Origin: Gammaproteobacteria bacterium
GTDB lineage: Bacteria; Pseudomonadota; Gammaproteobacteria; G965209235
NCBI GenBank assembly: GCA_965209235.1
Contig: OZ242382.1
Location: 1,263,010 to 1,327,009 of the forward strand
DNA length: 64,000 bases
Direction of reading: 5' to 3'
A program made the translations under genes and the position numbers. The notes below the pieces were generated by a model. It had not been told where the DNA came from, searched no databases, and worked only from the letters and a program-made list of their open reading frames with translations. This document shows positions 10,844-62,865 of the stretch, piece by piece. The stretch's first letter is position 1, and every line of letters starts with the position of its first letter.

Positions 10844-10919
10844 GGGTCGTTAGCTCAGTTGGTAGAGCAGTTGGCTTTTAACCAATTGGTCACTGGTTCG
10901 AGCCCAGTACGACCCACCA
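10844..10919 (+). tRNA. tRNA-Lys (anticodon UUU), CCA encoded
   Basis: Manual cloverleaf: acceptor GGGTCGT/ACGACCC, D arm GCTC/GAGC, anticodon loop CTTTTAA, T arm ACTGG-TTCGAGC-CCAGT. It sits in the same cpoB-tRNA-Lys-nadA position as in E. coli. Confidence 0.95.
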
Positions 10920-29893: not shown

Positions 29894-30319
29894 ATGCAGT
29901 TTCCGAGTGCCGGCACAACAGAGGAACGGATTGACTTAACGCCCCTCATTGACGTGGTCTTGTTGATTCTGATTTTTATCTTGGTCAGCGCCAAATTCAT
30001 TGAAACATCAAGTATCGATATCGCGTTGCCGGAAACAGGCGCGCCTGCTGATCGCAGCACCGACCGCGCCATGATTGTGGATATCGGCGCGGCAGGAACA
30101 TTGGCCATTAACGGCATCTTTGTGGAAGGGATCACCGACGGGGAGCAAACAGAGTCGCTCTCTGAGCTGTTTGAGCAAGAAAGCGCTGGTGACTTGAAGG
30201 CCATCATCTATATCCGCGCTGATGCTCGTGCGCCTCACGGATCGGTCGTGTTGGTGCTCGATACCGCGCAGCGTAATGGGTATTCGCGCGTGAGGTTTGC
30301 GGTGTCTCCTCGGCAGTAA
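29894..30319 (+). CDS. exbD: ExbD/TolR-family protein
   Basis: IDLTPLIDVVLLILIFILV is the conserved TM with Asp; the periplasmic domain has the expected length. Confidence 0.85.
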   Translation: MQFPSAGTTEERIDLTPLIDVVLLILIFILVSAKFIETSSIDIALPETGAPADRSTDRAMIVDIGAAGTLAINGIFVEGITDGEQTESLSELFEQESAGDLKAIIYIRADARAPHGSVVLVLDTAQRNGYSRVRFAVSPRQ

Positions 30320-30323
30320 CGAT

Positions 30324-33161
30324 ATGACGAAAACGGCAGGCCTTTGGTGGCGCTTTGGGAAGGACGCGAAATACAAGTACTTGTATTTATCGGGCATTAT
30401 TGTGGGTGCGCTGGTGACGGCGGCCGGCCAAGCGGGCTTGGTGGAGTGGATGCGGCGCATGTTGGCACAAGCCGACGTTCAGTCCGTTGACGGAACCATC
30501 GTGCCTTGGGATCTGTTGCTCGCTGTACCTGTCATTTTGTTGATCAACTCTCTGGGCGTTGGCTTGGGCGGTCTCTCGGTGCGGTACGGTGCCAACCATG
30601 CCGTGCAGGGCCTGCGCGTGCGGGCATTCGGCAGTTTGATGCGCCAGTCTCTGGAGTACATCCAGGCGCACGGTGAGTGGCATCTGGTGACGCGGCTCAC
30701 GCAAACGGCGCAGCGGGCGGGTGACGCAGCGGCCGGTGCTGTCGGCACGATGTTCAAAGACACCTTTGTGATCATCGCCATGATCGGGTACATCATCTAC
30801 ATCGCGCCCACGCAGATGTTCGTGGTGGCGCTGTGTGTGGTCGGTGCCGCGGTTGTGAACGCTTTGGCAGGGCGCATTTCCCGCAAGACTGCCACGCAAC
30901 TTCAGCAGGCGACGGGTGAACTCACGGGGTTGTCGGCTCAGTCGCTCGAAGGAGCGCCGATTGTCAAAGTCTTCCAAGGAGAGGCTCGGGAGCAGGAGCG
31001 TTTTCGTCAGGCCGGCATGGCGACGCGTCGATACAGCAATCGGCTTGGGATTGCGACTGTTCTGTCAGGGTTTCTGGTGGATGGTCTGGCTGGCGTGTTG
31101 CTTTTTGTGATCGCGTTATCGGTCTTTGGCGTGTTTGGAGGCAGTGCCATGCCGTCGGCGGATGTCGCGGCATTGATGTTTGCCATCGGCGCGTTGTTAC
31201 GTCCCGCCCGGGCGATGGCCAACTTGACGGTCATCCTTCACGCTGGAGCCGCCGCTTTGGATGAGTTGTATGGGTTGGTGGACTCAGAGCCGGAACAAGA
31301 AGATGGTGTGGGCCGGGATCTCGAGCGTCCGTTGAAGGGCGGCATTGAATTTCGAAATGTCACGTACACCTACCCCGCAGCCCAAGGGCGTGAGGCGAGC
31401 CAAGTGCTTCGCGGGTTGAACCTCAAAATCGAGCCGGGCGAGACCGTCGCGCTTGTGGGTGAGTCGGGTGGCGGAAAGTCGACGATCGCCAAGATTGCTG
31501 CCTGCCTGATTCAGCCTCAAACCGGACAAGTTCTTTTTGATGGCATGAATGCTGTCGGACTGGACTTGCGGTCATTGCGCAGTCAGGTGTCATATGTCTC
31601 ACAACGTGCCTTCATCTTTGACGACACGATTCGCGAAAACATTGCCTACGGCGCACAATCCACTGATGAAGCCATCTGGAATGCGGCAGAACGCGCGGCG
31701 ATTGCCGACTTCATCCGGTCATTGCCGCGAGGACTGGATACCCGCCTTGGCGGTGATCATCATTCGATGTCAGGCGGGCAGTTGCAACGTATTGCACTGG
31801 CTCGCGCGTTCTTCCGCGACGCGCCGATCCTCGTCTTGGATGAGGCCACATCGGCCCTTGATCAGGAAACCGAAATACACGTCCAGCGGGTGATTCAGGA
31901 CTTAAGTCGTGGTCGAACCGTCATTGCCATTGCGCACCGCCCCGAGACGGCCATTCGCGCCGACCGGGTTGTCTTGATCAAAGATGGGGATGTCGGAGCA
32001 GACGGCGACCACAACGAGCTTTTGCGCCACGATGCGATTTATCGGCGGACCATGACGGGAACCACCCACGCCCCGCAACCTGAGGCACCGGCGGTCCATC
32101 CTCTCGTTGAGGTGCAGAATCGGATGCCGTGGTTCATCCGTACCCCAATCACCTTGATGCGGTACGTCAGCATGCTGCTGGCGCCGTTTGATGGCTTAAT
32201 CGCGCAGTGGCAGATACGGCGCCATATGAGATCTCGGCGGACGATTACAGGAGAAGTGCCAGTGGTTGCCGTCGGAGGGGTCTTGAGAGATGGCAGCGGC
32301 TGCGAGGACTTCACGTCCTACATGATCGATCGACTGGCCGCGAGTGGCCAACGCGTGGGTGTTGCCATCAGGCAGGATGACGGGGTGAGCGGGGAAGCGC
32401 GCTTGATTCCCTCGGGGGCCACCGCGTTCTCTGCCGGCGGATGGGCGTCGCGCCTCGCGTCTGATCAACGGCTGACGGTGGCGACTGCGCGCACCGTCGA
32501 AGCCGCGTCTCGACTCCTTCTGATGCGCGGGGGAATCGACATTGTGATTGCGCATGATGCGCTTTCACGCTATGGCCTGCGGCGTGCCTTTGAGGTGGCG
32601 GTCGTCGATCTCGTTGAGTCCAAGCATCTCTCATTGGCATTGACACCAACTGGCTTATCCATGCTGGATTGGATTGCCGTACGTGGGTTTGGGGGACAGG
32701 TGGAGCCTGTGCGCGAGGATGTGCCTCAACTGGCCTTTTGGCATAGCTCGCCAGAGTTTCGCCATCTTCAGCAAAACGAAGTCATGTCACCCGTAGAATT
32801 CCGTGAAGCGCATGGATTGTGGGTTCATTTGGTGGCCCGGTCCGGCGAAGTGTGGCCCTTAACCCGCGCGTTGGAAGTGCTCGGATTTAAGGTCAAGGCG
32901 CATGTGCCCAATGCCCTTCAATGGGTTGATCCTGATGCACTCCGCCGTGGTGATGAGTTTCCGATTGTGGCATCGGCCTCGACGTCATCCATGATGCCGT
33001 CAGGCGCTGCTGAAATATGGGAGCTGTCAGATGAGGTGGCTACAGATGCAACGGGAGACCTGTTAGTGCGGCGAGTAATTGAAAAATTTGGGTTGGTGGA
33101 AAGACACATCGTGGACGCCATAGATGCCAAAGACGCTGATGATCAAGAGAAGGTGGCGTAA
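30324..33161 (+). CDS. msbA: Lipid A flippase MsbA (residues about 1-590) fused in frame to an LpxK-like domain with degenerate active-site motifs (about the last 345 residues)
   Basis: MsbA part: six TM segments, Walker A GESGGGKST, signature MSGGQLQRIA, Walker B ILVLDEATSALD, H-loop AIAHR. C-terminal part: VPVVAVGGVLRDGSGCEDF...GQRVGVAIRQDDG...IVIAHDALSRYGLRRAFEVAVVD aligns with E. coli LpxK VPVVVVGNLTAGGNGKTP...GIRVGVVSRGYGG...[23 protein letters not shown]. Confidence 0.85.
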   Translation: MTKTAGLWWRFGKDAKYKYLYLSGIIVGALVTAAGQAGLVEWMRRMLAQADVQSVDGTIVPWDLLLAVPVILLINSLGVGLGGLSVRYGANHAVQGLRVRAFGSLMRQSLEYIQAHGEWHLVTRLTQTAQRAGDAAAGAVGTMFKDTFVIIAMIGYIIYIAPTQMFVVALCVVGAAVVNALAGRISRKTATQLQQATGELTGLSAQSLEGAPIVKVFQGEAREQERFRQAGMATRRYSNRLGIATVLSGFLVDGLAGVLLFVIALSVFGVFGGSAMPSADVAALMFAIGALLRPARAMANLTVILHAGAAALDELYGLVDSEPEQEDGVGRDLERPLKGGIEFRNVTYTYPAAQGREASQVLRGLNLKIEPGETVALVGESGGGKSTIAKIAACLIQPQTGQVLFDGMNAVGLDLRSLRSQVSYVSQRAFIFDDTIRENIAYGAQSTDEAIWNAAERAAIADFIRSLPRGLDTRLGGDHHSMSGGQLQRIALARAFFRDAPILVLDEATSALDQETEIHVQRVIQDLSRGRTVIAIAHRPETAIRADRVVLIKDGDVGADGDHNELLRHDAIYRRTMTGTTHAPQPEAPAVHPLVEVQNRMPWFIRTPITLMRYVSMLLAPFDGLIAQWQIRRHMRSRRTITGEVPVVAVGGVLRDGSGCEDFTSYMIDRLAASGQRVGVAIRQDDGVSGEARLIPSGATAFSAGGWASRLASDQRLTVATARTVEAASRLLLMRGGIDIVIAHDALSRYGLRRAFEVAVVDLVESKHLSLALTPTGLSMLDWIAVRGFGGQVEPVREDVPQLAFWHSSPEFRHLQQNEVMSPVEFREAHGLWVHLVARSGEVWPLTRALEVLGFKVKAHVPNALQWVDPDALRRGDEFPIVASASTSSMMPSGAAEIWELSDEVATDATGDLLVRRVIEKFGLVERHIVDAIDAKDADDQEKVA
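30369..30388. repeat. Perfect 20-bp palindrome AAATACAAGTACTTGTATTT inside the first 25 codons of msbA
   Basis: Read directly and checked by reverse complement. It is AT-rich in a GC-rich context and encodes KYKYLY. Confidence 0.95.
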
Positions 33162-54643: not shown

Positions 54644-56008
54644 ATGGCTGTGACCGATCACCGGCACAACAAAGCGTCAGGACTTCAAATAGTTGGCGCC
54701 CAATGGGGCGATGAGGGGAAGGGCAAACTTTCTCATGCGTTGAGTTATCACGCTGACTACTGCGTTCGGTACCATGGCGGTGCGAACGCAGGACACTCCA
54801 TCAAGCCGCGCGATGGCACATCTATGGTGCTTCACTTGGTGCCTTGCGGGATCATGCATGAGGACGTGCACTGTCTCATCGGACGCGGCACGGTGTTGGA
54901 CATTGACCGGTTAACGGATGAAGTCCAAAAACTAGACGCTATGCGACCAGATCTGCGCGTGCGATCGCGTCTTGCTGTGTCGTATGCATGCCCTGTGGTT
55001 CTCCCGTGGCATGTCGCTGTTGATGAAGCTGTGGATGACAGCACCGCCTCGCTGGGCACAACCCGAAGGGGCATTGGGCCGGTGATGGAAGACCGGGCAG
55101 CGCGCCGTGCAGTTCGTGTGGGTGATTGTTTCAAACCTGACGACCTCAAGGCGCGATTACAGCAGATTTCGAATCGTTATAACGTCATCCTTAAGCATCA
55201 GTACAACGAAAACACAATTTCGATGATGTCGGTGTATGATGCGGTTATGACAGCATTTGACTCGAATGTCAAAGATCTGGTGACAGACGATGAGGCGTAC
55301 ATGCGCGATCGTGTGATCGGCGCAACGGCGGTCTATGAAGGCGCGCAAGGAGCGATGCTGGATCTGGACTTTGGCACATGGCCGTATGTCACCAGCACAA
55401 ATACCATGCCGTTTGATCTCGCGCGTGGTGTTGGCTACGATGGTTCACATGTCGTGGGGCACACGTTGCTCGTGGCCAAAGCCTATGTCACGCGAGTTGG
55501 CGTGGGGCCGCTTCCCACCACGATGGATGATGATGTCGGATCCATGATTGCGGAAAAAGGGAAAGAGTGGGGAGCATCGACTGGTCGCGCCCGTCGTATT
55601 GGATGGTTGGACATCCCCTTACTACGGCACGTTGTTGACAAGACAGCCCGCGCGTCGCTCGCCCTCACAAAAGCAGATGTCCTTTCGGACCTGAAGACAG
55701 TCAAGGTTTGCGTGGGATACGATGGCGTTGAAGCGGGTAAGAGCCCGTCTTTGATGTCGTTGCAACCAGAGACTCATGGGCTTCGTCCGATCTACCGTGA
55801 GTTCGAAGGTTGGGGAGATTTGACCCAAGCGACGAGCTATGCGGATCTCGATTCGCGATTTCGCGTGTTTGTTGATTTTCTGGAAGATGAGCTCCAGATC
55901 CCGGTCTCGTTGATCTCCAACGGTCCAGAAGAGCGGGCGTTGTTAGAAACTCCTCATGTCGCACAACTCGTCCGGTCGTATATGACGTCCAGCCGGTCTC
56001 GTGAGTAG
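54644..56008 (+). CDS. purA: Adenylosuccinate synthetase
   Basis: GAQWGDEGKGK P-loop, GTTRRGIGP, GKEWGASTGRARR, and position after hflC. Confidence 0.95.
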   Translation: MAVTDHRHNKASGLQIVGAQWGDEGKGKLSHALSYHADYCVRYHGGANAGHSIKPRDGTSMVLHLVPCGIMHEDVHCLIGRGTVLDIDRLTDEVQKLDAMRPDLRVRSRLAVSYACPVVLPWHVAVDEAVDDSTASLGTTRRGIGPVMEDRAARRAVRVGDCFKPDDLKARLQQISNRYNVILKHQYNENTISMMSVYDAVMTAFDSNVKDLVTDDEAYMRDRVIGATAVYEGAQGAMLDLDFGTWPYVTSTNTMPFDLARGVGYDGSHVVGHTLLVAKAYVTRVGVGPLPTTMDDDVGSMIAEKGKEWGASTGRARRIGWLDIPLLRHVVDKTARASLALTKADVLSDLKTVKVCVGYDGVEAGKSPSLMSLQPETHGLRPIYREFEGWGDLTQATSYADLDSRFRVFVDFLEDELQIPVSLISNGPEERALLETPHVAQLVRSYMTSSRSRE

Positions 56009-58358
56009 ATGGCGTAATCCCGAGGCGCCTCGTATGGTGCGCGCGTGGCTACGCGTTGTCATCACGGGCGTCGTCTTACTGGTGGGCCCTGCACTGTATT
56101 GGTTGGTGGGGTTGAACTTTGGGTTGTTTGGCAACCTGCACCCGAAAGGTCAGCCGACGGTGGCGCCGATTGAAGAGGGCTTCATTGCACAGCGGGATGC
56201 TTTGCAAGATGATGCTCGCCTGCGGGCGGGAAGCGACAACGAAACGATGATCCTATTTGGTGATCTTCATGTTCACACCACTTACTCCATTGATGCCTAC
56301 GCGGGTGCACTACGGTTTCGCGGAGGTTCAGGACTGCGCCCGGTTGCCGACGCATGTGACTATGCGCGGTTTTGTGCTGCCCTGGATTTCTGGGCTATCA
56401 CTGATCATGCAGAGACGCTCACGACCAGGACATGGCATGACACTCAAGATGCCATAGAACAGTGCATGGCAGCTCAGATCTCACCTGGTGGTGGGGATGA
56501 GCTTGAAACGGTGCCATTCCTTGGCTGGGAATGGACCGGTGTCTCGCGCGAGTCGGCTACGCACTACGGGCACCGCAACATCATCCTGAAGGACGCCAGT
56601 AAGAATGTCCCTCAGCGTGCGATTGCATCCCCAGGATCGAGTGGAACAGCACGAGGTGTACCACCTCTCGCGGCGCGCATGATCCCCACGCTCGGGGACT
56701 GGGGAAACAGGCAGGGGTACTACGACTTTTACCGGCATTTACAGGAAATTGCAGAGAGACCTCTTTGTCCGGAGGGTGTCCCATCGCCCGATCTCCCAGA
56801 TTCGTGTCACGAAGTGGCATGGGACCCTGCTGACCTCTTTCGCAAGCTAGACGAGTGGCCCGAGACTGAGGCGATTGTGATCCCTCATGGGACCACATGG
56901 GGTTTTTACACACCGCCGGATTCCGATTGGGTCGAGAAGCAGGGGGCGTACTCATCGCAGCACGACCTATCGCGCCAGATTCTGTTTGAAACGTACAGCG
57001 GACACGGTAACTCTGAGGAGTACCGGCCATTTATCGCGATCATCCCTGAAGACGATGGGACGTACTCGTGTCCCGGCATTCAGGGCAACTACGTGCCGAT
57101 GTGCGTTCGTGCCGGCGAGATCATTCAAGAGCGGTGCGAGAAGGCGGGAGGTAGCCCACCCGAGTGCGCTGACCGTGCGGCTGATGCACGCAAGTTTGCA
57201 GCCAATATGGGCATTGGCGCCTGGATGTCAGTGCCGAGCGGGACTGTGGATGAATGGCGTGATGCCGGGCAGTGCATGGACTGTTACTTGCCATCGTTCA
57301 ACTACAACCCGAAAGGATCCATCCAGTACGTGTTGGCTCGCCGAGACTTCTCGGCAAACCCAGCTGCGAAACACGTCTTTGGGTTTATCGGATCCAGCGA
57401 TAACCATACGGCCAGGCCGGGCGCTGGCTACAAAGAGCGCAACCGCCCTACGACCCTTGATGGCGTGTATTTCGTCAACGATTTTTGGAAGCAATACCAG
57501 ATGGGCAGACAACCAGAGCCATCTGCTGCGGCCCGCTATGTCGACATTCTGACGCCAGGGATCGGCGGCGGATTCCGTTTGCAAGAAACCGAGAGGCTGA
57601 ATAGCTACTTCTACGGCGCCGGTCTCGTGGGCGTGCACGCTACAGAAAGGTCGTCAGACGCCATCTGGGATGCGATGTCCAGTCGAAGCACATACGCCAC
57701 CAGTGGTGGCCGGTTGATGCTGTGGTTTGATCTGCTGAACGGACCAGGTAACCGAGAATCGTGGCCGATGGGTTCTCACGTCGAAATGAACTGGGCCCCA
57801 TCGTTTCGCGTGCGTGCGATCGGGGAAGCCAAACAAGCACCAGGGTGCCCTGACTATCGGGTAAATGCGGTCGATCCACAGCGCCTCGAACACCTGTGTA
57901 AAAGTGACTGTTATAACCCGACGAATGAACGTCATTCAATCAACAAGATTCAGGTTGTCCGCATTCGGCCTCAATTGTCAGAAGATGAGCCTGTGGAAGA
58001 CTTAATCGAAGACCCATGGCTTGAATTTGTCTGCCCGCCAAACGATGGAACATGCGTGGTTCAGTTCACTGATCCCGAGTTCTTCGATAGCGAGCGTGAC
58101 TCTCTGTATTACGTCCGTGCGATCCAAGAAGCCACCCCTGTAATGGGCGGGGAACAGATCAGATGTGAGCGTGATGACAGTGGACGGTGCGTGCGCGTCT
58201 TGGATCCATGCCCAGGCATCATCATGTCGGATGGTTTCGTGCGTGATTGCAATGATGGCAAGCCGGTCGGCGAGCGAGCATGGTCATCGCCGATCTATGT
58301 GGATTTCGCACCCTGGGTGGGACGTTCTCGGGACTTTGATCGCGTTACGAAGCGCTGA
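56001..58358 (+). CDS. DUF3604 domain protein (PHP-like metal-dependent phosphoesterase fold), membrane-anchored or exported
   Basis: N-terminal TM segment. LFGDLHVHTTYSIDAY and ITDHAE His-rich motifs are typical of DUF3604/PHP. Many Cys residues. Confidence 0.7.
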   Translation: MSRWRNPEAPRMVRAWLRVVITGVVLLVGPALYWLVGLNFGLFGNLHPKGQPTVAPIEEGFIAQRDALQDDARLRAGSDNETMILFGDLHVHTTYSIDAYAGALRFRGGSGLRPVADACDYARFCAALDFWAITDHAETLTTRTWHDTQDAIEQCMAAQISPGGGDELETVPFLGWEWTGVSRESATHYGHRNIILKDASKNVPQRAIASPGSSGTARGVPPLAARMIPTLGDWGNRQGYYDFYRHLQEIAERPLCPEGVPSPDLPDSCHEVAWDPADLFRKLDEWPETEAIVIPHGTTWGFYTPPDSDWVEKQGAYSSQHDLSRQILFETYSGHGNSEEYRPFIAIIPEDDGTYSCPGIQGNYVPMCVRAGEIIQERCEKAGGSPPECADRAADARKFAANMGIGAWMSVPSGTVDEWRDAGQCMDCYLPSFNYNPKGSIQYVLARRDFSANPAAKHVFGFIGSSDNHTARPGAGYKERNRPTTLDGVYFVNDFWKQYQMGRQPEPSAAARYVDILTPGIGGGFRLQETERLNSYFYGAGLVGVHATERSSDAIWDAMSSRSTYATSGGRLMLWFDLLNGPGNRESWPMGSHVEMNWAPSFRVRAIGEAKQAPGCPDYRVNAVDPQRLEHLCKSDCYNPTNERHSINKIQVVRIRPQLSEDEPVEDLIEDPWLEFVCPPNDGTCVVQFTDPEFFDSERDSLYYVRAIQEATPVMGGEQIRCERDDSGRCVRVLDPCPGIIMSDGFVRDCNDGKPVGERAWSSPIYVDFAPWVGRSRDFDRVTKR

Positions 58359-58782
58359 TCTTCGGGGAGGCGGCCTGTCCTTCCTTAAAAATGCGGTCGA
58401 GGGTCGCATTGATGATCTTGAATGTGCGGTCGCCCATAAACGTTTTCGACAGCTGGATGCAGCGCGAGATCACCAAAGGTCCGTCGGCACACTTCATGTA
58501 TTCAATCTCAGCGCAACCGACGATCAGTAGCGACAGGGTAAGCGGATCGAAGTGACGAGGCTCACGGTCAGCAACTGCTGAAATGCGGGCAAGGATTTTG
58601 TTGTAGTGCGTCGACACGTCCTGGGTCAGCGCGTTGAAATACTCATCCGTTTGCGCGCCTTTCGACAAAGCGTTTCGATCAATCAACTCACCAGATTGTG
58701 CTGTCTGGCCAACAACCTGTGCGTACACCGCTTCGACGCACGCGCGAAAGCCTTTAAAAGTGGGTTCGACAGCGTTATGCAT
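58345..58782 (-). CDS. nusB: Transcription antitermination factor NusB
   Basis: NusB-like helical pattern (LSLLIVGCAEIEY, VISRCIQLSKTFMGDRTFKIINATLDRI) and position after ribH. Its 3' end overlaps the DUF3604 gene by 14 nt. Confidence 0.8.
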   Translation of the reverse strand: MHNAVEPTFKGFRACVEAVYAQVVGQTAQSGELIDRNALSKGAQTDEYFNALTQDVSTHYNKILARISAVADREPRHFDPLTLSLLIVGCAEIEYMKCADGPLVISRCIQLSKTFMGDRTFKIINATLDRIFKEGQAASPKISAS

Positions 58783-58844
58783 GGCAATTCCTGGATATCG
58801 GAGATGTGACACGCTGTGGGGTCAGATGGTTCATACAGTCGAAT

Positions 58845-59744
58845 TCACGCGCTGTATCGAGGGATGGCAAGCAAGGTCCGAATTGCGGACACCATGCATT
58901 CAGCGCCTTTCGTCTTTGCGCGCTCTTGGAGCTGTTCTTGGGTATGGCATGTCAGGATGCCGCAGATCACCGGCTTCTTGCGTGAAATCGAAATGCGTTG
59001 CAACTGATCAAATGCAGCTTGTGAGATCAGTTGGGCGTGGTTGGTTTCGCCTGTCACGACGCATCCAAAAGCGATAGATGCCGAACAGTTGTCAAAGGCC
59101 AGAAGTTGATCACAGGCATACGGAAGCTCAAAGGTGCCTGGGACTTCAAACTGATTCGTGAATGCTTCGTGGTCAGGCGCGGATGGTCGAACATCAGAGA
59201 GTTGCTGCACGACATTCATGAATCCGTTACGCACTGTGAAAGGTGTGTTCGGTTTGACTTCTCGTTTGGTTGCTTCTAACGCTTTGCTGACCTTAGAGAA
59301 GTACTCTCGTCTAATCACCTTGTCACGTGTTGAAAGAGCGGCTTGATGAAGGCAGTTGGCGTAGTTCAATGCGAGGATGGCTGCGTCAATGAGTGCTTCA
59401 ACGAACACGTGGGTCTCACGCATCTCAACAAATGTCTTCAAGATGTCGCTTCGCATCCTCTGCGCGTCTAGCGACATTTGTGAGCAGGTGTCGTTATGCC
59501 AAGACGTATGCACGATTGATATTTGTGCAATCCTTTGCAAGTATCGCAAGGCTTCTGCGGCTATGCTGACGAGTGTGTCATCTTCGTTGAGTGCAATGTC
59601 TTCAGAAAAGCTTCTGTAGCTATGCTCATCTTGAGTGCGCTGCACTACTTGCGCCACATGCTTATCAAGAACTCGCGCCCAGAATAGCCGAACTAGCTCC
59701 TTCTTCGCATCGTCACCAAGCAGAAAGTCTCCGTGCTGGGCCAT
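58845..59744 (-). CDS. ribH: 6,7-dimethyl-8-ribityllumazine synthase (RibH) with a non-homologous N-terminal extension of about 146 residues
   Basis: C-terminal residues about 198-299 (FEVPGTFELP...IAFGCVVTGETNHAQL...PVICGILTC...ERAKTKGAE) align with E. coli RibH from VWVPGAYELP onward. Residues 1-146 are predicted helical and unlike RibH. The ATG overlaps the ribBX stop (TGATG). Confidence 0.75.
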   Translation of the reverse strand: MAQHGDFLLGDDAKKELVRLFWARVLDKHVAQVVQRTQDEHSYRSFSEDIALNEDDTLVSIAAEALRYLQRIAQISIVHTSWHNDTCSQMSLDAQRMRSDILKTFVEMRETHVFVEALIDAAILALNYANCLHQAALSTRDKVIRREYFSKVSKALEATKREVKPNTPFTVRNGFMNVVQQLSDVRPSAPDHEAFTNQFEVPGTFELPYACDQLLAFDNCSASIAFGCVVTGETNHAQLISQAAFDQLQRISISRKKPVICGILTCHTQEQLQERAKTKGAECMVSAIRTLLAIPRYSA

Positions 59745-60823
59745 CAGCTGCTTCGGCCCTTCGGAGATTCGAAGTTAATGATGTTGATATCAAACCACGA
59801 GAGCGGTGACTGGGGCAGGGGAGATCCCAGCGCGACGCAGGAGTGCACGCCGACATTCTGAAGAATTTGTGCGCCAAGTCCAACATCCCGCATCGTGTGG
59901 GAGGAGGAGCCACTTCGGGAATCCCGAGATGCCCATGCGCCGCCTAACAGTGCAACAACGCCGTGTCCGTGACGTGCAATCCGTTCTTGGGCTGTATCCA
60001 CAGACCATGAATCATCAGTCATCAACCCAAGTGCATCGCGCTCAAGCTCAATGCGCTGGACTCTAACCATTGTGGAGCCATCTTCAGGAATATCTCCGTA
60101 AACCATCGCATGGTGATGGTCACCTGAGATACTATCCAAGTAGGTATGTACCTTCCAATCACCATGGCGGGTGGTGATTGTCTTCTCGCTGATCGTCGTC
60201 AGCGTGTTTTCGCGAGACTGCCGGTAGTGAATCAGGTCAGCAATGGTGCCGATCTTCAGGCCAAACTTCAACGCGAATTCGCGAAGTTCTGGCAAACGTG
60301 CCATCGTGCCATCTTCGTTCATGATCTCAACGATGGCGGCACCTGGTTTGCGTCCTGCCAGCACAGCCAAGTCAATCGCAGCTTCCGTATGACCAGCGCG
60401 CCGCAACACGCCGCCATCAGCGGCACGCAGCGGAAACACGTGTCCGGGGCGTACGAATTGATCCGGTGTCGCATCATCATTCATCACTTCGCGCATCGTG
60501 TATGCGCGGTCTGCGGCAGAAATCCCGGTCGTGACACCTTCTCGCGACTCGATCGTGACGGTAAAGGCCGTGCCGTGATGCGCTTCATTGCGAGCGGTCA
60601 TGGGGCCGAATTGCAAGCGGTCGCAGACTGACCCTGGCAAAGGCATACAGATGAGGCCGCAGCACTCGCGTGCCATAAACGCAACTTGCTCGTTGGTGAG
60701 GCAGTCTGCTGCGGCGATTACGTCGCCTTCGTTCTCTTGATCTTCGTCATCAACCAAGATGACCATTTCACCGGCGCGAACCGCTTCAATCAGGGACGAT
60801 GTCTCTGAGATAGCAACTGACAT
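59744..60823 (-). CDS. ribB: 3,4-dihydroxy-2-butanone-4-phosphate synthase fused to a GTP-cyclohydrolase-II-like domain lacking the zinc cysteines (RibBX type)
   Basis: DHBPS motifs MVILVDDEDQENEGDVI and RAGHTEAAIDL. The C-terminal domain aligns with RibA, but [10 protein letters not shown]...RCDCG reads RVQRIELERD...TDDSW. Confidence 0.9.
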   Translation of the reverse strand: MSVAISETSSLIEAVRAGEMVILVDDEDQENEGDVIAAADCLTNEQVAFMARECCGLICMPLPGSVCDRLQFGPMTARNEAHHGTAFTVTIESREGVTTGISAADRAYTMREVMNDDATPDQFVRPGHVFPLRAADGGVLRRAGHTEAAIDLAVLAGRKPGAAIVEIMNEDGTMARLPELREFALKFGLKIGTIADLIHYRQSRENTLTTISEKTITTRHGDWKVHTYLDSISGDHHHAMVYGDIPEDGSTMVRVQRIELERDALGLMTDDSWSVDTAQERIARHGHGVVALLGGAWASRDSRSGSSSHTMRDVGLGAQILQNVGVHSCVALGSPLPQSPLSWFDINIINFESPKGRSS

Positions 60824-60866: not shown

Positions 60867-62081
60867 CTAATTTCGCGCGATCGCTTCGTCTATGCCTGTC
60901 ACCATTTGCTGCGCGATCGTTGCTATATCGGAGTGATTTGAGGTGTCGGCGAACACCATGCGCGTATCAGCGCCAACTTGTCGAGCATCCACCAGAGAGA
61001 GAGATGAAGGGTGGGAGAGATCGGCGCCGATCGCAACACCCTCAATGCCCTGCCCGCTGCCGAGTAACCGCGGCGCGAGATAGACCACACACAGATCAGC
61101 CAGACCCGATTGCACGACCGATTGCATCAGCCTCGGACCGGCTTCCACCATCACGTGCGCGCAACCCGCATGACCGAGCGCGGTGAAGAGCGCACCCATG
61201 TCAGTTCGGCCGTGGGAATCAACAAGCGCGGGTTTCGGAGTGCATCCAGTCGGAGCGCTCGTAGCAACGATCCACACTGGTGTATCTGGGTCGTTCCGCA
61301 GTTGGTGGATGTCCTGTTCTTCGACTGAGCCGCAGACGACTTTGAGGCGCGGCGCATGCGCTACCAAAGAGCTGTGATGATCGTCAAGCCCACACCGGAT
61401 GAGTTCGTCACGGCGAGGTGACAGGCGAGGACGGTCACGGGTCACCGTGCCGCATCCGGTGACGATGGCATCGGTCACGCCGCGCCACAGGTGGGCATCG
61501 CACCGAGATGCCGCCGACGTGATCCACTGTGAACGGCCGGCGGCGTTCACCATGTATCCATCAAGCGACTGAGCCCACTTCGCGATGACTAATGGCCGAG
61601 ATTGCCTATAAAGGGATCCATATCCCAGCAGCTGGGCTTGCGCTTGTTGGGCGATCGGGTCGTCGTGAGGTAGCACTTGAATATCAATCCCTCGCTCGCG
61701 CAGGATCTGGACACCGCGTCCGCTAACGTCAGGATGGGGATCGAGAGTGGCTACCCTTACGGTTGTGATTCCAGAGCGCAGGATGGCTTCCGTGCAAGGA
61801 GGCGTGCGGCCATGGATGCAGCAGGGCTCCAACGTGACGTACATCGTCAAGTCATCAACAGATGTGATGTTCCTCGTTTTGAGATCCGCGAGGGCATTGA
61901 CCTCGCCGTGCCCGGTTCCCGGCTGGATGTGCCACCCTTCGCCGACGATATCCCGCCCGTTCGTGATCACACATCCCACGGTGGGATTGGGGTGCGCCGT
62001 CAATGTGCCGCGCCGCGCCAGCGTCAACGCGCGCTGAAAGAAGACAGATGCGTTTATGAGAGCACCTCGCAGATGTCGCAA
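60867..62081 (-). CDS. ribD: Bifunctional riboflavin biosynthesis protein RibD (deaminase/reductase). TTG start inferred; ORF opens at 62186.
   Basis: NPTVGCVI, HGEVNAL and TLEPCCIHGRTPPC deaminase zinc motifs, plus a C-terminal reductase domain. Confidence 0.85.
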   Translation of the reverse strand: MRHLRGALINASVFFQRALTLARRGTLTAHPNPTVGCVITNGRDIVGEGWHIQPGTGHGEVNALADLKTRNITSVDDLTMYVTLEPCCIHGRTPPCTEAILRSGITTVRVATLDPHPDVSGRGVQILRERGIDIQVLPHDDPIAQQAQAQLLGYGSLYRQSRPLVIAKWAQSLDGYMVNAAGRSQWITSAASRCDAHLWRGVTDAIVTGCGTVTRDRPRLSPRRDELIRCGLDDHHSSLVAHAPRLKVVCGSVEEQDIHQLRNDPDTPVWIVATSAPTGCTPKPALVDSHGRTDMGALFTALGHAGCAHVMVEAGPRLMQSVVQSGLADLCVVYLAPRLLGSGQGIEGVAIGADLSHPSSLSLVDARQVGADTRMVFADTSNHSDIATIAQQMVTGIDEAIARN

Positions 62082-62689
62082 AACTCGCCTTCTTTCTTGC
62101 AGCGATGGGCCTGACAACGCTGGCGGCCCCAGTAAATGATCTGCAAATGCAAGTCGTTCCAGTACTCCGAGGCGTACAGGCGGCACAAGTCTTTTTCCAC
62201 GCGATCAGGAGTCGTGGCCTGCGTTAGCTTCCAGCGTTTTGCGAGCCGAAGGATATGGGTGTCGACGGGGAAGGCGGGAATACCGAACCCTTGACTGCGC
62301 ACCACCAGAGCAGTCTTGCGACCGACGCCTGCCAGCGCAGTCAGATCTGCTAAGTCGCACGGGATCTCGCCGCCGTGGTGCTCAACAAGGAGCTTGGCGG
62401 TTTTGACCAAGTTGGCGGCCTTGGAGTTAGCCAGTCCCAAGCTGCGAATGTGCGTCAGGACCTCTGACGCGCTGGCTTGAGCCATCGTTTCAGGGTCTGG
62501 GAACGCCTTCATTAAGCTCGGTGTGCACATATTGACGCGCACATCAGTGCATTGGGCCGAGAGCAACACAGCCACAAGCAAAGAAAACCGGTCATCATGA
62601 TCTAAGGGAATCGGCGGCGTTGGGTACGCGGCGCGAAGGTGCGTGTGCGCTAGCTCGGCTCTGGCTTCTATCGTGAAGTGACCTGGCAT
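62054..62689 (-). CDS. nth: Endonuclease III (Nth), HhH-GPD family
   Basis: LLSAQCTD, the HhH motif LTALAGVGRKTALVV, and VDTHILR. The C-terminal four-Cys cluster has unusual spacing. Start at Met-23 of the ORF is inferred. Confidence 0.85.
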   Translation of the reverse strand: MPGHFTIEARAELAHTHLRAAYPTPPIPLDHDDRFSLLVAVLLSAQCTDVRVNMCTPSLMKAFPDPETMAQASASEVLTHIRSLGLANSKAANLVKTAKLLVEHHGGEIPCDLADLTALAGVGRKTALVVRSQGFGIPAFPVDTHILRLAKRWKLTQATTPDRVEKDLCRLYASEYWNDLHLQIIYWGRQRCQAHRCKKEGEFCDICEVLS

Positions 62690-62865
62690 TGTCGATGTCC
62701 TGGTGACGCCTCTGACGCATGCGGCAACACCGTAGGCGATCGTGTCTGAGGTCAATCAAATTGTGCGTACCGAGATGCGGCGGCGCTGGTACACTTGGAT
62801 TGACTCGTAGCAAAGCACACTCCGGTGTCTTTGCTGCATTGCGCCATGGGTAGGTCTCAGCGATC

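Follow-up and report, generated by a model that had tools for sequence, protein, structure and literature searches.

Lumazine synthase (RibH) is a classic example of a self-assembling enzyme and is widely employed as a nanoparticle scaffold, and its known natural variation consists, to our knowledge, of small loop changes or of whole-enzyme fusions to an intact RibH. The type I enzymes (PF00885), whose nearest solved structures by sequence to the protein discussed here are those of Bordetella pertussis (9yl5) and Aquifex aeolicus (1hqk), are proteins of ~150-165 residues with a flavodoxin-like fold, encoded between ribBA or ribBX and nusB. A stretch of 64,000 nucleotides from a gammaproteobacterial genome (assembly GCA_965209235.1, contig OZ242382.1, positions 1,263,010 to 1,327,009 of the forward strand; hereafter the window) carries a ribH open reading frame (ORF) in the same operon position, on the minus strand at 58845..59744 with its ATG at 59742-59744. 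The ORF comprises 299 codons plus stop, and an earlier note on this DNA, made from the sequence alone, had correctly described a 299-residue lumazine synthase of about twice the normal length. The reading favoured here, with reasonable though not full confidence, is that the ORF encodes a complete but split type I lumazine synthase, probably active, which starts at this ATG, carries helical additions and is expected to form a pentamer without the standard capsid.

Long RibH proteins do occur in nature, either as tandem RibH-RibH (P0002) or as fusions with riboflavin synthase (P0021, P0232, P0236), archaeal-type riboflavin synthase (P0094, P0140) or GTP cyclohydrolase II (P0087, P0111, P0118, P0143). 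Like the protein from the window, they reach ~300 residues or more and carry their extra sequence N-terminal to the VPG motif. In these proteins, however, the extra sequence is identifiable as a second enzyme domain that precedes an unbroken RibH, whereas here it has no homologue and lies partly inside the fold. Pentameric, capsid-free lumazine synthases are known from M. tuberculosis, yeasts and Magnaporthe grisea, and a decameric form from Brucella (RibH2) (PMC2935281, PMC10366380). Elements of the interface behind the 60-subunit capsid are changed in these enzymes and, judged by sequence, appear to be changed in the present protein as well, though small loop changes account for the difference there and ~145 added residues here. 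No lumazine synthase with such an insertion is described in the literature searched.

Read from its sequence, the protein consists of four consecutive parts. An N-terminal extension (residues 1-56; 59577..59744, minus strand as for all parts of the gene), with predicted helices at residues 11-38 and 43-52 and without family or structure match, precedes the displaced canonical N-terminal part of RibH (residues 57-101; 59442..59576), which is located by a position-specific scoring matrix (PSSM), hidden Markov models (HMMs), phmmer, Smith-Waterman alignment, MAFFT and AlphaFold2 (AF2). The insertion that follows (residues 102-191; 59172..59441) appears as the gap between two HMM domains, is predicted with low confidence to be helical and lacks homologues, and the remaining fold, running contiguously from strand beta3 to helix alpha5 with its catalytic residues (residues 192-299; 58848..59171), is delimited by PF00885, hhalign and PDB matches. 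The insertion itself measures ~88-90 residues and lies between helix alpha1 and strand beta3. The earlier note had assigned all of the additional sequence to one N-terminal extension of ~146 residues, but the ~145 residues by which the protein exceeds a type I RibH divide into ~56 at the N-terminus and ~88-90 inside the fold, and a helix is predicted in place of the N-terminal strand beta1. The interruption is most apparent from the distance between the substrate-stacking aromatic residue and the VPG motif, which is 119 residues here against a mode of 31 in 231 other RibH, where it varies by ~15 residues over a real range of 26-41. With this spacing and a length of 299 residues, the protein is not the single contiguous domain of ~150-165 residues typical of the family.

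The split architecture depends on the identification of residues 73-101 (AQISIVHTSWHNDTCSQMSLDAQRMRSDI) as the canonical beta2/alpha1 block of RibH ("ISIVHTSWHND..."), for which the family consensus reads RIGIVvSrW[NH]eeIT..L..GA. Strand beta2 occupies residues 75-80 (ISIVHT) and is followed by the substrate-stacking aromatic W82 and by H83, with helix alpha1 beginning at residue 84. A PSSM of 29 columns derived from 174 RibH gives residue 73 a score of 15.0 bits, with 1.1 bits for the runner-up position, and 15 bits were attained in none of 5000 shuffles of residues 1-200 (mean of the shuffle maxima -0.8, standard deviation 3.3). The full RibH HMM finds two collinear domains with hmmsearch, model positions 17-41 matching residues 73-97 (independent E-value, or i-Evalue, 0.0016) and positions 48-154 matching residues 192-294 (3e-39), and an HMM of only the RibH region upstream of VPG yields a single match at residues 75-90. 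When a profile of 30 RibH sequences is compared with residues 1-162 by hhalign, residues 72-94 alone are aligned. Phmmer likewise reports two collinear domains (~57-101 and ~199-290) with six natural RibH (P0032, P0196, P0026, P0104, P0003 and P0010), which share an IVxTxWH motif. The best Smith-Waterman match is centred on residues 70-89 for 62 of 143 RibH N-terminal fragments, including nearly all top scorers, and free beta2/alpha1 fragments of 28-34 residues are placed by MAFFT at residues 64-96. The earlier statement that residues 1-146 resemble nothing recognisable thus does not hold, given the canonical RibH block found within them by PSSM, HMM and phmmer.

The second and larger piece of the fold is recognised by standard family models. 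Pfam DMRL_synthase (PF00885) matches residues 196-291 with profile positions 37-135 of 139 (2.6e-29; 102.3 bits, cutoff 26.7), hhalign aligns the core to RibH at 3.7e-29 with 42% identity, and lumazine synthases in the PDB align from about residue 198, corresponding to their residue 50 (best 5.5e-12). The earlier observations that only the C-terminal part aligns with RibH and that VPGTFELP begins at residue 201 are borne out by these matches. All columns that are invariant in sets of 30 and of 21 RibH are kept (G203, E206, G227, G232, T234, H236, P258 and R275), and by alignment the active-site residues are present as W82 (the counterpart of Phe22/Trp27), F205/E206, T234, H236, R275 and K279. 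In Bacillus subtilis numbering these align with residues established by mutagenesis and structures, namely Phe22 (W82), Phe57/Glu58 (F205/E206), Thr86/His88 (T234/H236), Arg127 (R275) and Lys135 (K279). Together, the two pieces (73-101 and 192-299) supply the elements beta2-alpha1-beta3-alpha2-beta4-alpha3-beta5-alpha4-alpha5 in the right order, as in type I RibH, with an alpha4-alpha5 loop that is four residues shorter in the alignment, a feature shared with the B. pertussis enzyme. The protein is most likely an active lumazine synthase with lineage-specific helical additions.

Structure prediction agrees with this arrangement to the extent that the alignment supplied allows. With an alignment covering the core only, AF2 models residues 200-299 with a predicted local distance difference test (pLDDT) above 90 and residues 1-196 as low-confidence helices, at a predicted template modelling score (pTM) of 0.40. 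A second alignment combined 6 core fragments with 18 beta2/alpha1 fragments, the latter placed at residues 66-96 by the tool's own MAFFT step, after many other fragment mixtures had been misaligned by MAFFT before one clean alignment was obtained. With this alignment in the 73-101 register, pTM rises to 0.67 and residues 71-100 reach a pLDDT of 94-95, with a strand at 75-80, a helix at 84-110 and strand beta3 at 198-201. Over most of the core, pLDDT exceeds 88, dropping to 65-74 at residues 231-260, and the N-terminal helices 11-38, 43-52 and 54-73 lie at about 60-86 (residues 11-40 at ~72-83). Foldseek superposes the second model over 232 columns on M. tuberculosis lumazine synthase (2vi5) with a template modelling (TM) score of 0.74 normalised to the target, core-only alignments giving ~0.52-0.55, and the model therefore contains the whole lumazine synthase fold. 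The same search returned lumazine synthases only and says nothing on the added module.

The two added segments have no significant match in Pfam, NCBIfam, PHROGs or the PDB sequences, the best being TPR_ATM at 0.005-0.009 and CysG_dimeriser at 0.03, which agrees with the earlier claim that the extra sequence lacks recognisable relatives. The HMM and structure search of the N-terminal part that the earlier note had proposed as a check thus had a divided outcome, in that the added segments are without relatives but the beta2/alpha1 block of RibH lies inside the stretch. The segments have no paralogue among the window proteins and no similarity to the downstream NusB, and ribH shows no internal duplication at protein or DNA level. 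The possibility that the N-terminal part is a decayed second copy of RibH was rejected, with hhalign matching the short beta2/alpha1 motif only, as was insertion of an intein or mobile element, there being no family match for residues 98-196, only short repeats at chance level and no internal duplication.

A protein with the same split layout was not found among representatives of about 15 billion proteins. A word-indexed search returned the query only, and in an exhaustive HMMER search of 1.84 billion cluster representatives the split layout was again confined to the query, which scored 663 bits and was followed by ordinary RibH at 75 bits or less. The other long proteins in that HMMER list are tandem RibH or enzyme fusions, each with an uninterrupted RibH, and two-domain phmmer matches explain its "2 stretches" entries. 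The neighbouring gene product RibBX provides a second route to relatives, its nearest homologues coming from Gamma- and Betaproteobacteria with a best identity of 47% in GTDB species representatives and ~50% in a search of 5.8 billion protein clusters. The RibH encoded beside the nearest RibBA homologues is contiguous and canonical in 57 of 57 cases, so that the orthologous extended ribH genes which the earlier note had suggested looking for in related genomes did not turn up. Two metagenome scans revealed no relative with the split layout, and an exact-sequence contig look-up gave no match. The top-scoring RibBX match, P0250, was rejected as a close relative, consisting of tandem DHBP synthase domains at a contig end with 54% identity and without ribH; it stems from a Rhizobacter sp. 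metagenome-assembled genome (L081:5033-6101, GCA_045810325.1) and is probably an assembly artefact.

Translation of the added DNA was assessed by its coding potential under a three-periodic Markov model trained on 46 other window ORFs. The in-frame score is positive in 15 of the 19 sliding windows along the ribH ORF, falling slightly below zero around residues 61-105 and over the last ~45 codons; the other two sense frames are negative and the antisense frames no higher than about zero. For codons 1-65 the score is 0.130 per codon, compared with 0.106 ± 0.068 for genuine in-frame 65-codon windows, and 0.130 is reached by none of 420 shifted-frame and none of 630 antisense windows. The ATG of ribH shares one base with the TGA of ribBX (TGATG, 59742-59746), as the earlier note had seen, and one-base stop/start overlaps with ATG, of the TGATG or TAATG type, occur at five other junctions of the window (5915, 6604, 39098, 45465 and 53747), which points to frequent translational coupling in this genome. 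No in-frame stop separates extension and core, again as previously noted, the core being preceded by 197 stop-free codons. The earlier proposal that the extra sequence is translated is, in view of the coding potential and the TGATG junction, very probably right, and the most likely point of initiation is the ATG that is coupled to the stop of ribBX, although the Shine-Dalgarno sequence ahead of it is weak; no internal start has a better ribosome-binding site.

Several observations weigh against the split, complete enzyme proposed here. Each HMMER match to residues 73-101 is individually weak (i-Evalue 0.0016-0.008 in single-sequence search; hhalign probability 2.8%), and the register rests on the agreement between methods together with the shuffle test. 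The AF2 run lacking information on the 73-101 register did not find strand beta2, and the run that gave the complete fold was conditional on the alignment supplied in that register and is not independent proof; the insertion helices (112-138, 142-159 and 172-183) are modelled at low confidence (pLDDT 41-63). TIGR00114 scores 78.1 bits and falls short of its equivalog cutoff of 84.6, because the model cannot bridge the insertion to the displaced N-terminal third. No orthologue was found, the architecture being known from a single sequence of one genome, and low GC content with a divergent neighbour in nusB would also fit relaxed selection. Finally, BLASTP alignments with two RibH (P0195 and P0197) reach across residues 132-163, and full-length homologues are aligned by MAFFT with their N-termini at residues 133-156, as would be expected from the model of the earlier note, in which one helical domain of ~146 residues is fused to a RibH whose first strand and helix are poorly conserved at ~147-197. 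This model is nonetheless improbable, and the placement at ~133-163 is regarded as an effect of gap costs, since the PSSM is negative there (-3.0 bits at 139-167), the HMMs show no domain at ~139-163 and the segment KVIRRE is more polar than a buried central strand would allow. Furthermore, AF2 predicts a helix at 142-159, if at low confidence, and free beta2/alpha1 fragments never align at ~139-163. The first RibH strands are accordingly not located at residues 147-197, nor is the fold eroded at its N-terminus, its first strand and helix lying at 73-101. Still harder to sustain is an internal start that yields a RibH of normal length and leaves the upstream 440 nt as non-coding DNA or a decayed gene. 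Longest-ORF calls can indeed overshoot, as that of ribD in the window probably does, and the weak Shine-Dalgarno sequence would be in keeping with such an error, but none of the internal starts would give a complete fold, the sole beta2/alpha1 block being that at 73-101, in frame and ~94 residues before the core. This explanation is set aside mainly because a protein begun after residue 72 would lack the central strand, and with it the substrate-stacking aromatic residue; the long stop-free run upstream of the core and the score of codons 1-65, above all 1050 off-frame windows, also speak against it, while for a decayed upstream gene no other frame looks coding and no family match exists in the region. 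An intermediate case, in which the split architecture is right but translation begins at GTG-30, GTG-34, TTG-66 or TTG-69, with the insertion as sole addition if the N-terminal extension is lost, has somewhat better prospects but is unlikely. These in-frame start codons are present, and a start at 66 or 69 would leave an N-terminus of canonical length, but none has a better ribosome-binding site, the ATG lies in an overlap of the kind used at five other ATG-started junctions, codons 1-65 have the coding potential of real genes, and AF2 models helix 11-38 at a pLDDT of ~82 without any alignment support.

A further rival concerns the role of the additions and is compatible with the split architecture, namely that they amount to selectively neutral filler, tolerated at the surface and functionless, in a ribH that evolves fast or was acquired horizontally and that may be decaying if another ribH exists. 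This is a distinct possibility, though we consider it less probable than not. It gains from the guanine-cytosine (GC) content of ribH, which at 0.507 is the lowest of the 53 window ORFs (0.571 ± 0.023), with the neighbouring nusB second lowest and also very divergent. It gains, too, from the lack of a homologue of either added segment anywhere searched, the low confidence of the modelled insertion and the TIGR00114 score below cutoff. The conserved ribH core is also low in GC (0.517), and low GC therefore does not mark the extension as foreign; the AT-rich segment reported earlier exists, ribH being the most AT-rich ORF of the window, but this holds across the whole gene and not for its 5' part alone. 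Against neutral filler stand the retention of all invariant RibH residues, the 299 codons without a stop and with normal codon usage, the canonical operon position and the absence of comparable insertions from other window proteins. AspRS, TolB, PurA and others match their family models end to end, so large insertions are not a general habit of this genome.

If the protein is the split but complete lumazine synthase favoured here, published structures allow some expectations about its assembly. The active site lies between neighbouring subunits of the pentamer, the N-terminus adds a strand to the sheet of the neighbouring subunit, helices alpha1 and alpha4 form the threefold capsid contact and the alpha4-alpha5 loop the twofold contact (PMC2935281), and the N-terminus is surface-exposed (PMC6071185). 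In the present protein, judged by sequence, alpha1 continues into the insertion and the alpha4-alpha5 loop is shortened by four residues, and residues 54-73 are predicted to be helical. Given these changes in alpha1, the loop and the N-terminal strand, it is expected that the catalytic pentamer is kept and that the standard 60-subunit capsid is not built. The two added segments would then probably give each subunit of the pentamer an additional helical module. A more speculative and rather unlikely version of this idea is that extension and insertion together make up one discontinuous helical domain on the outer face, serving a new assembly state or the docking of RibBX or riboflavin synthase for substrate channelling; if true, the protein would be a naturally occurring lumazine synthase scaffold decorated with a domain.

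The ORF lies in a riboflavin operon on the minus strand with the order ribD - ribBX - ribH - nusB, its members being assigned by Pfam and NCBIfam. The first gene, ribD (60867..62186), probably starts further downstream than its longest ORF, which overlaps the upstream endonuclease III-like (HhH-GPD) ORF (62054-62755, minus strand) by 133 nt and in which the RibD deaminase domain begins at residue 47. Upstream of ribH, ribBX (59744..60823, minus strand) encodes a DHBP synthase domain with a strong match (268 bits) and, more weakly matched, a GTP cyclohydrolase II-like domain (72.7 bits; TIGR00505 20 bits). The weak half lacks, by eye, the zinc-binding cysteine motif, and a separate ribA is therefore expected elsewhere. 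Downstream of ribH, the divergent, low-GC nusB-like gene (58345..58812, minus strand) scores 46.5 bits with TIGR01951, for which the cutoff is 88.35, and 9e-10 with Pfam NusB. Its GC content of 0.532 is second-lowest among the window ORFs, and ribH and nusB make up a low-GC pair that is fast-evolving or possibly acquired. By tblastn, neither a riboflavin synthase gene (ribE) nor a second ribH is present in the 64-kb window, and no flavin mononucleotide riboswitch exceeds the Rfam gathering score there, the sole Rfam match being a tRNA at 10844-10916.

Two further ORFs of the window are of note, both on the plus strand. The ORF at 30297-33161 (954 residues) contains a full MsbA lipid A exporter (ABC_membrane and ABC_tran, residues 35-584) followed by a domain of LpxK, the tetraacyldisaccharide kinase (residues 625-786), and appears to be an msbA-lpxK fusion, barring an overlooked stop codon or start. 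The ORF at 56001-58358 (785 residues) matches DUF3604 and has at its N-terminus the histidine motif DLHVHTTYS, as is typical of PHP-type metal-dependent hydrolases.

The RibH of the window represents a new variant within an established enzyme family rather than a system of a new kind, and its additions may be without function. For annotation, it illustrates that domain models report the C-terminal two-thirds only, and that a split but complete RibH then resembles a truncated RibH with an unknown domain attached. If the protein is active, it would mean that ~90 residues between alpha1 and beta3, along with an N-terminal helical extension, are tolerated in nature, which would point to a permissive insertion site in lumazine synthase and possibly to a new assembly state or interaction surface.

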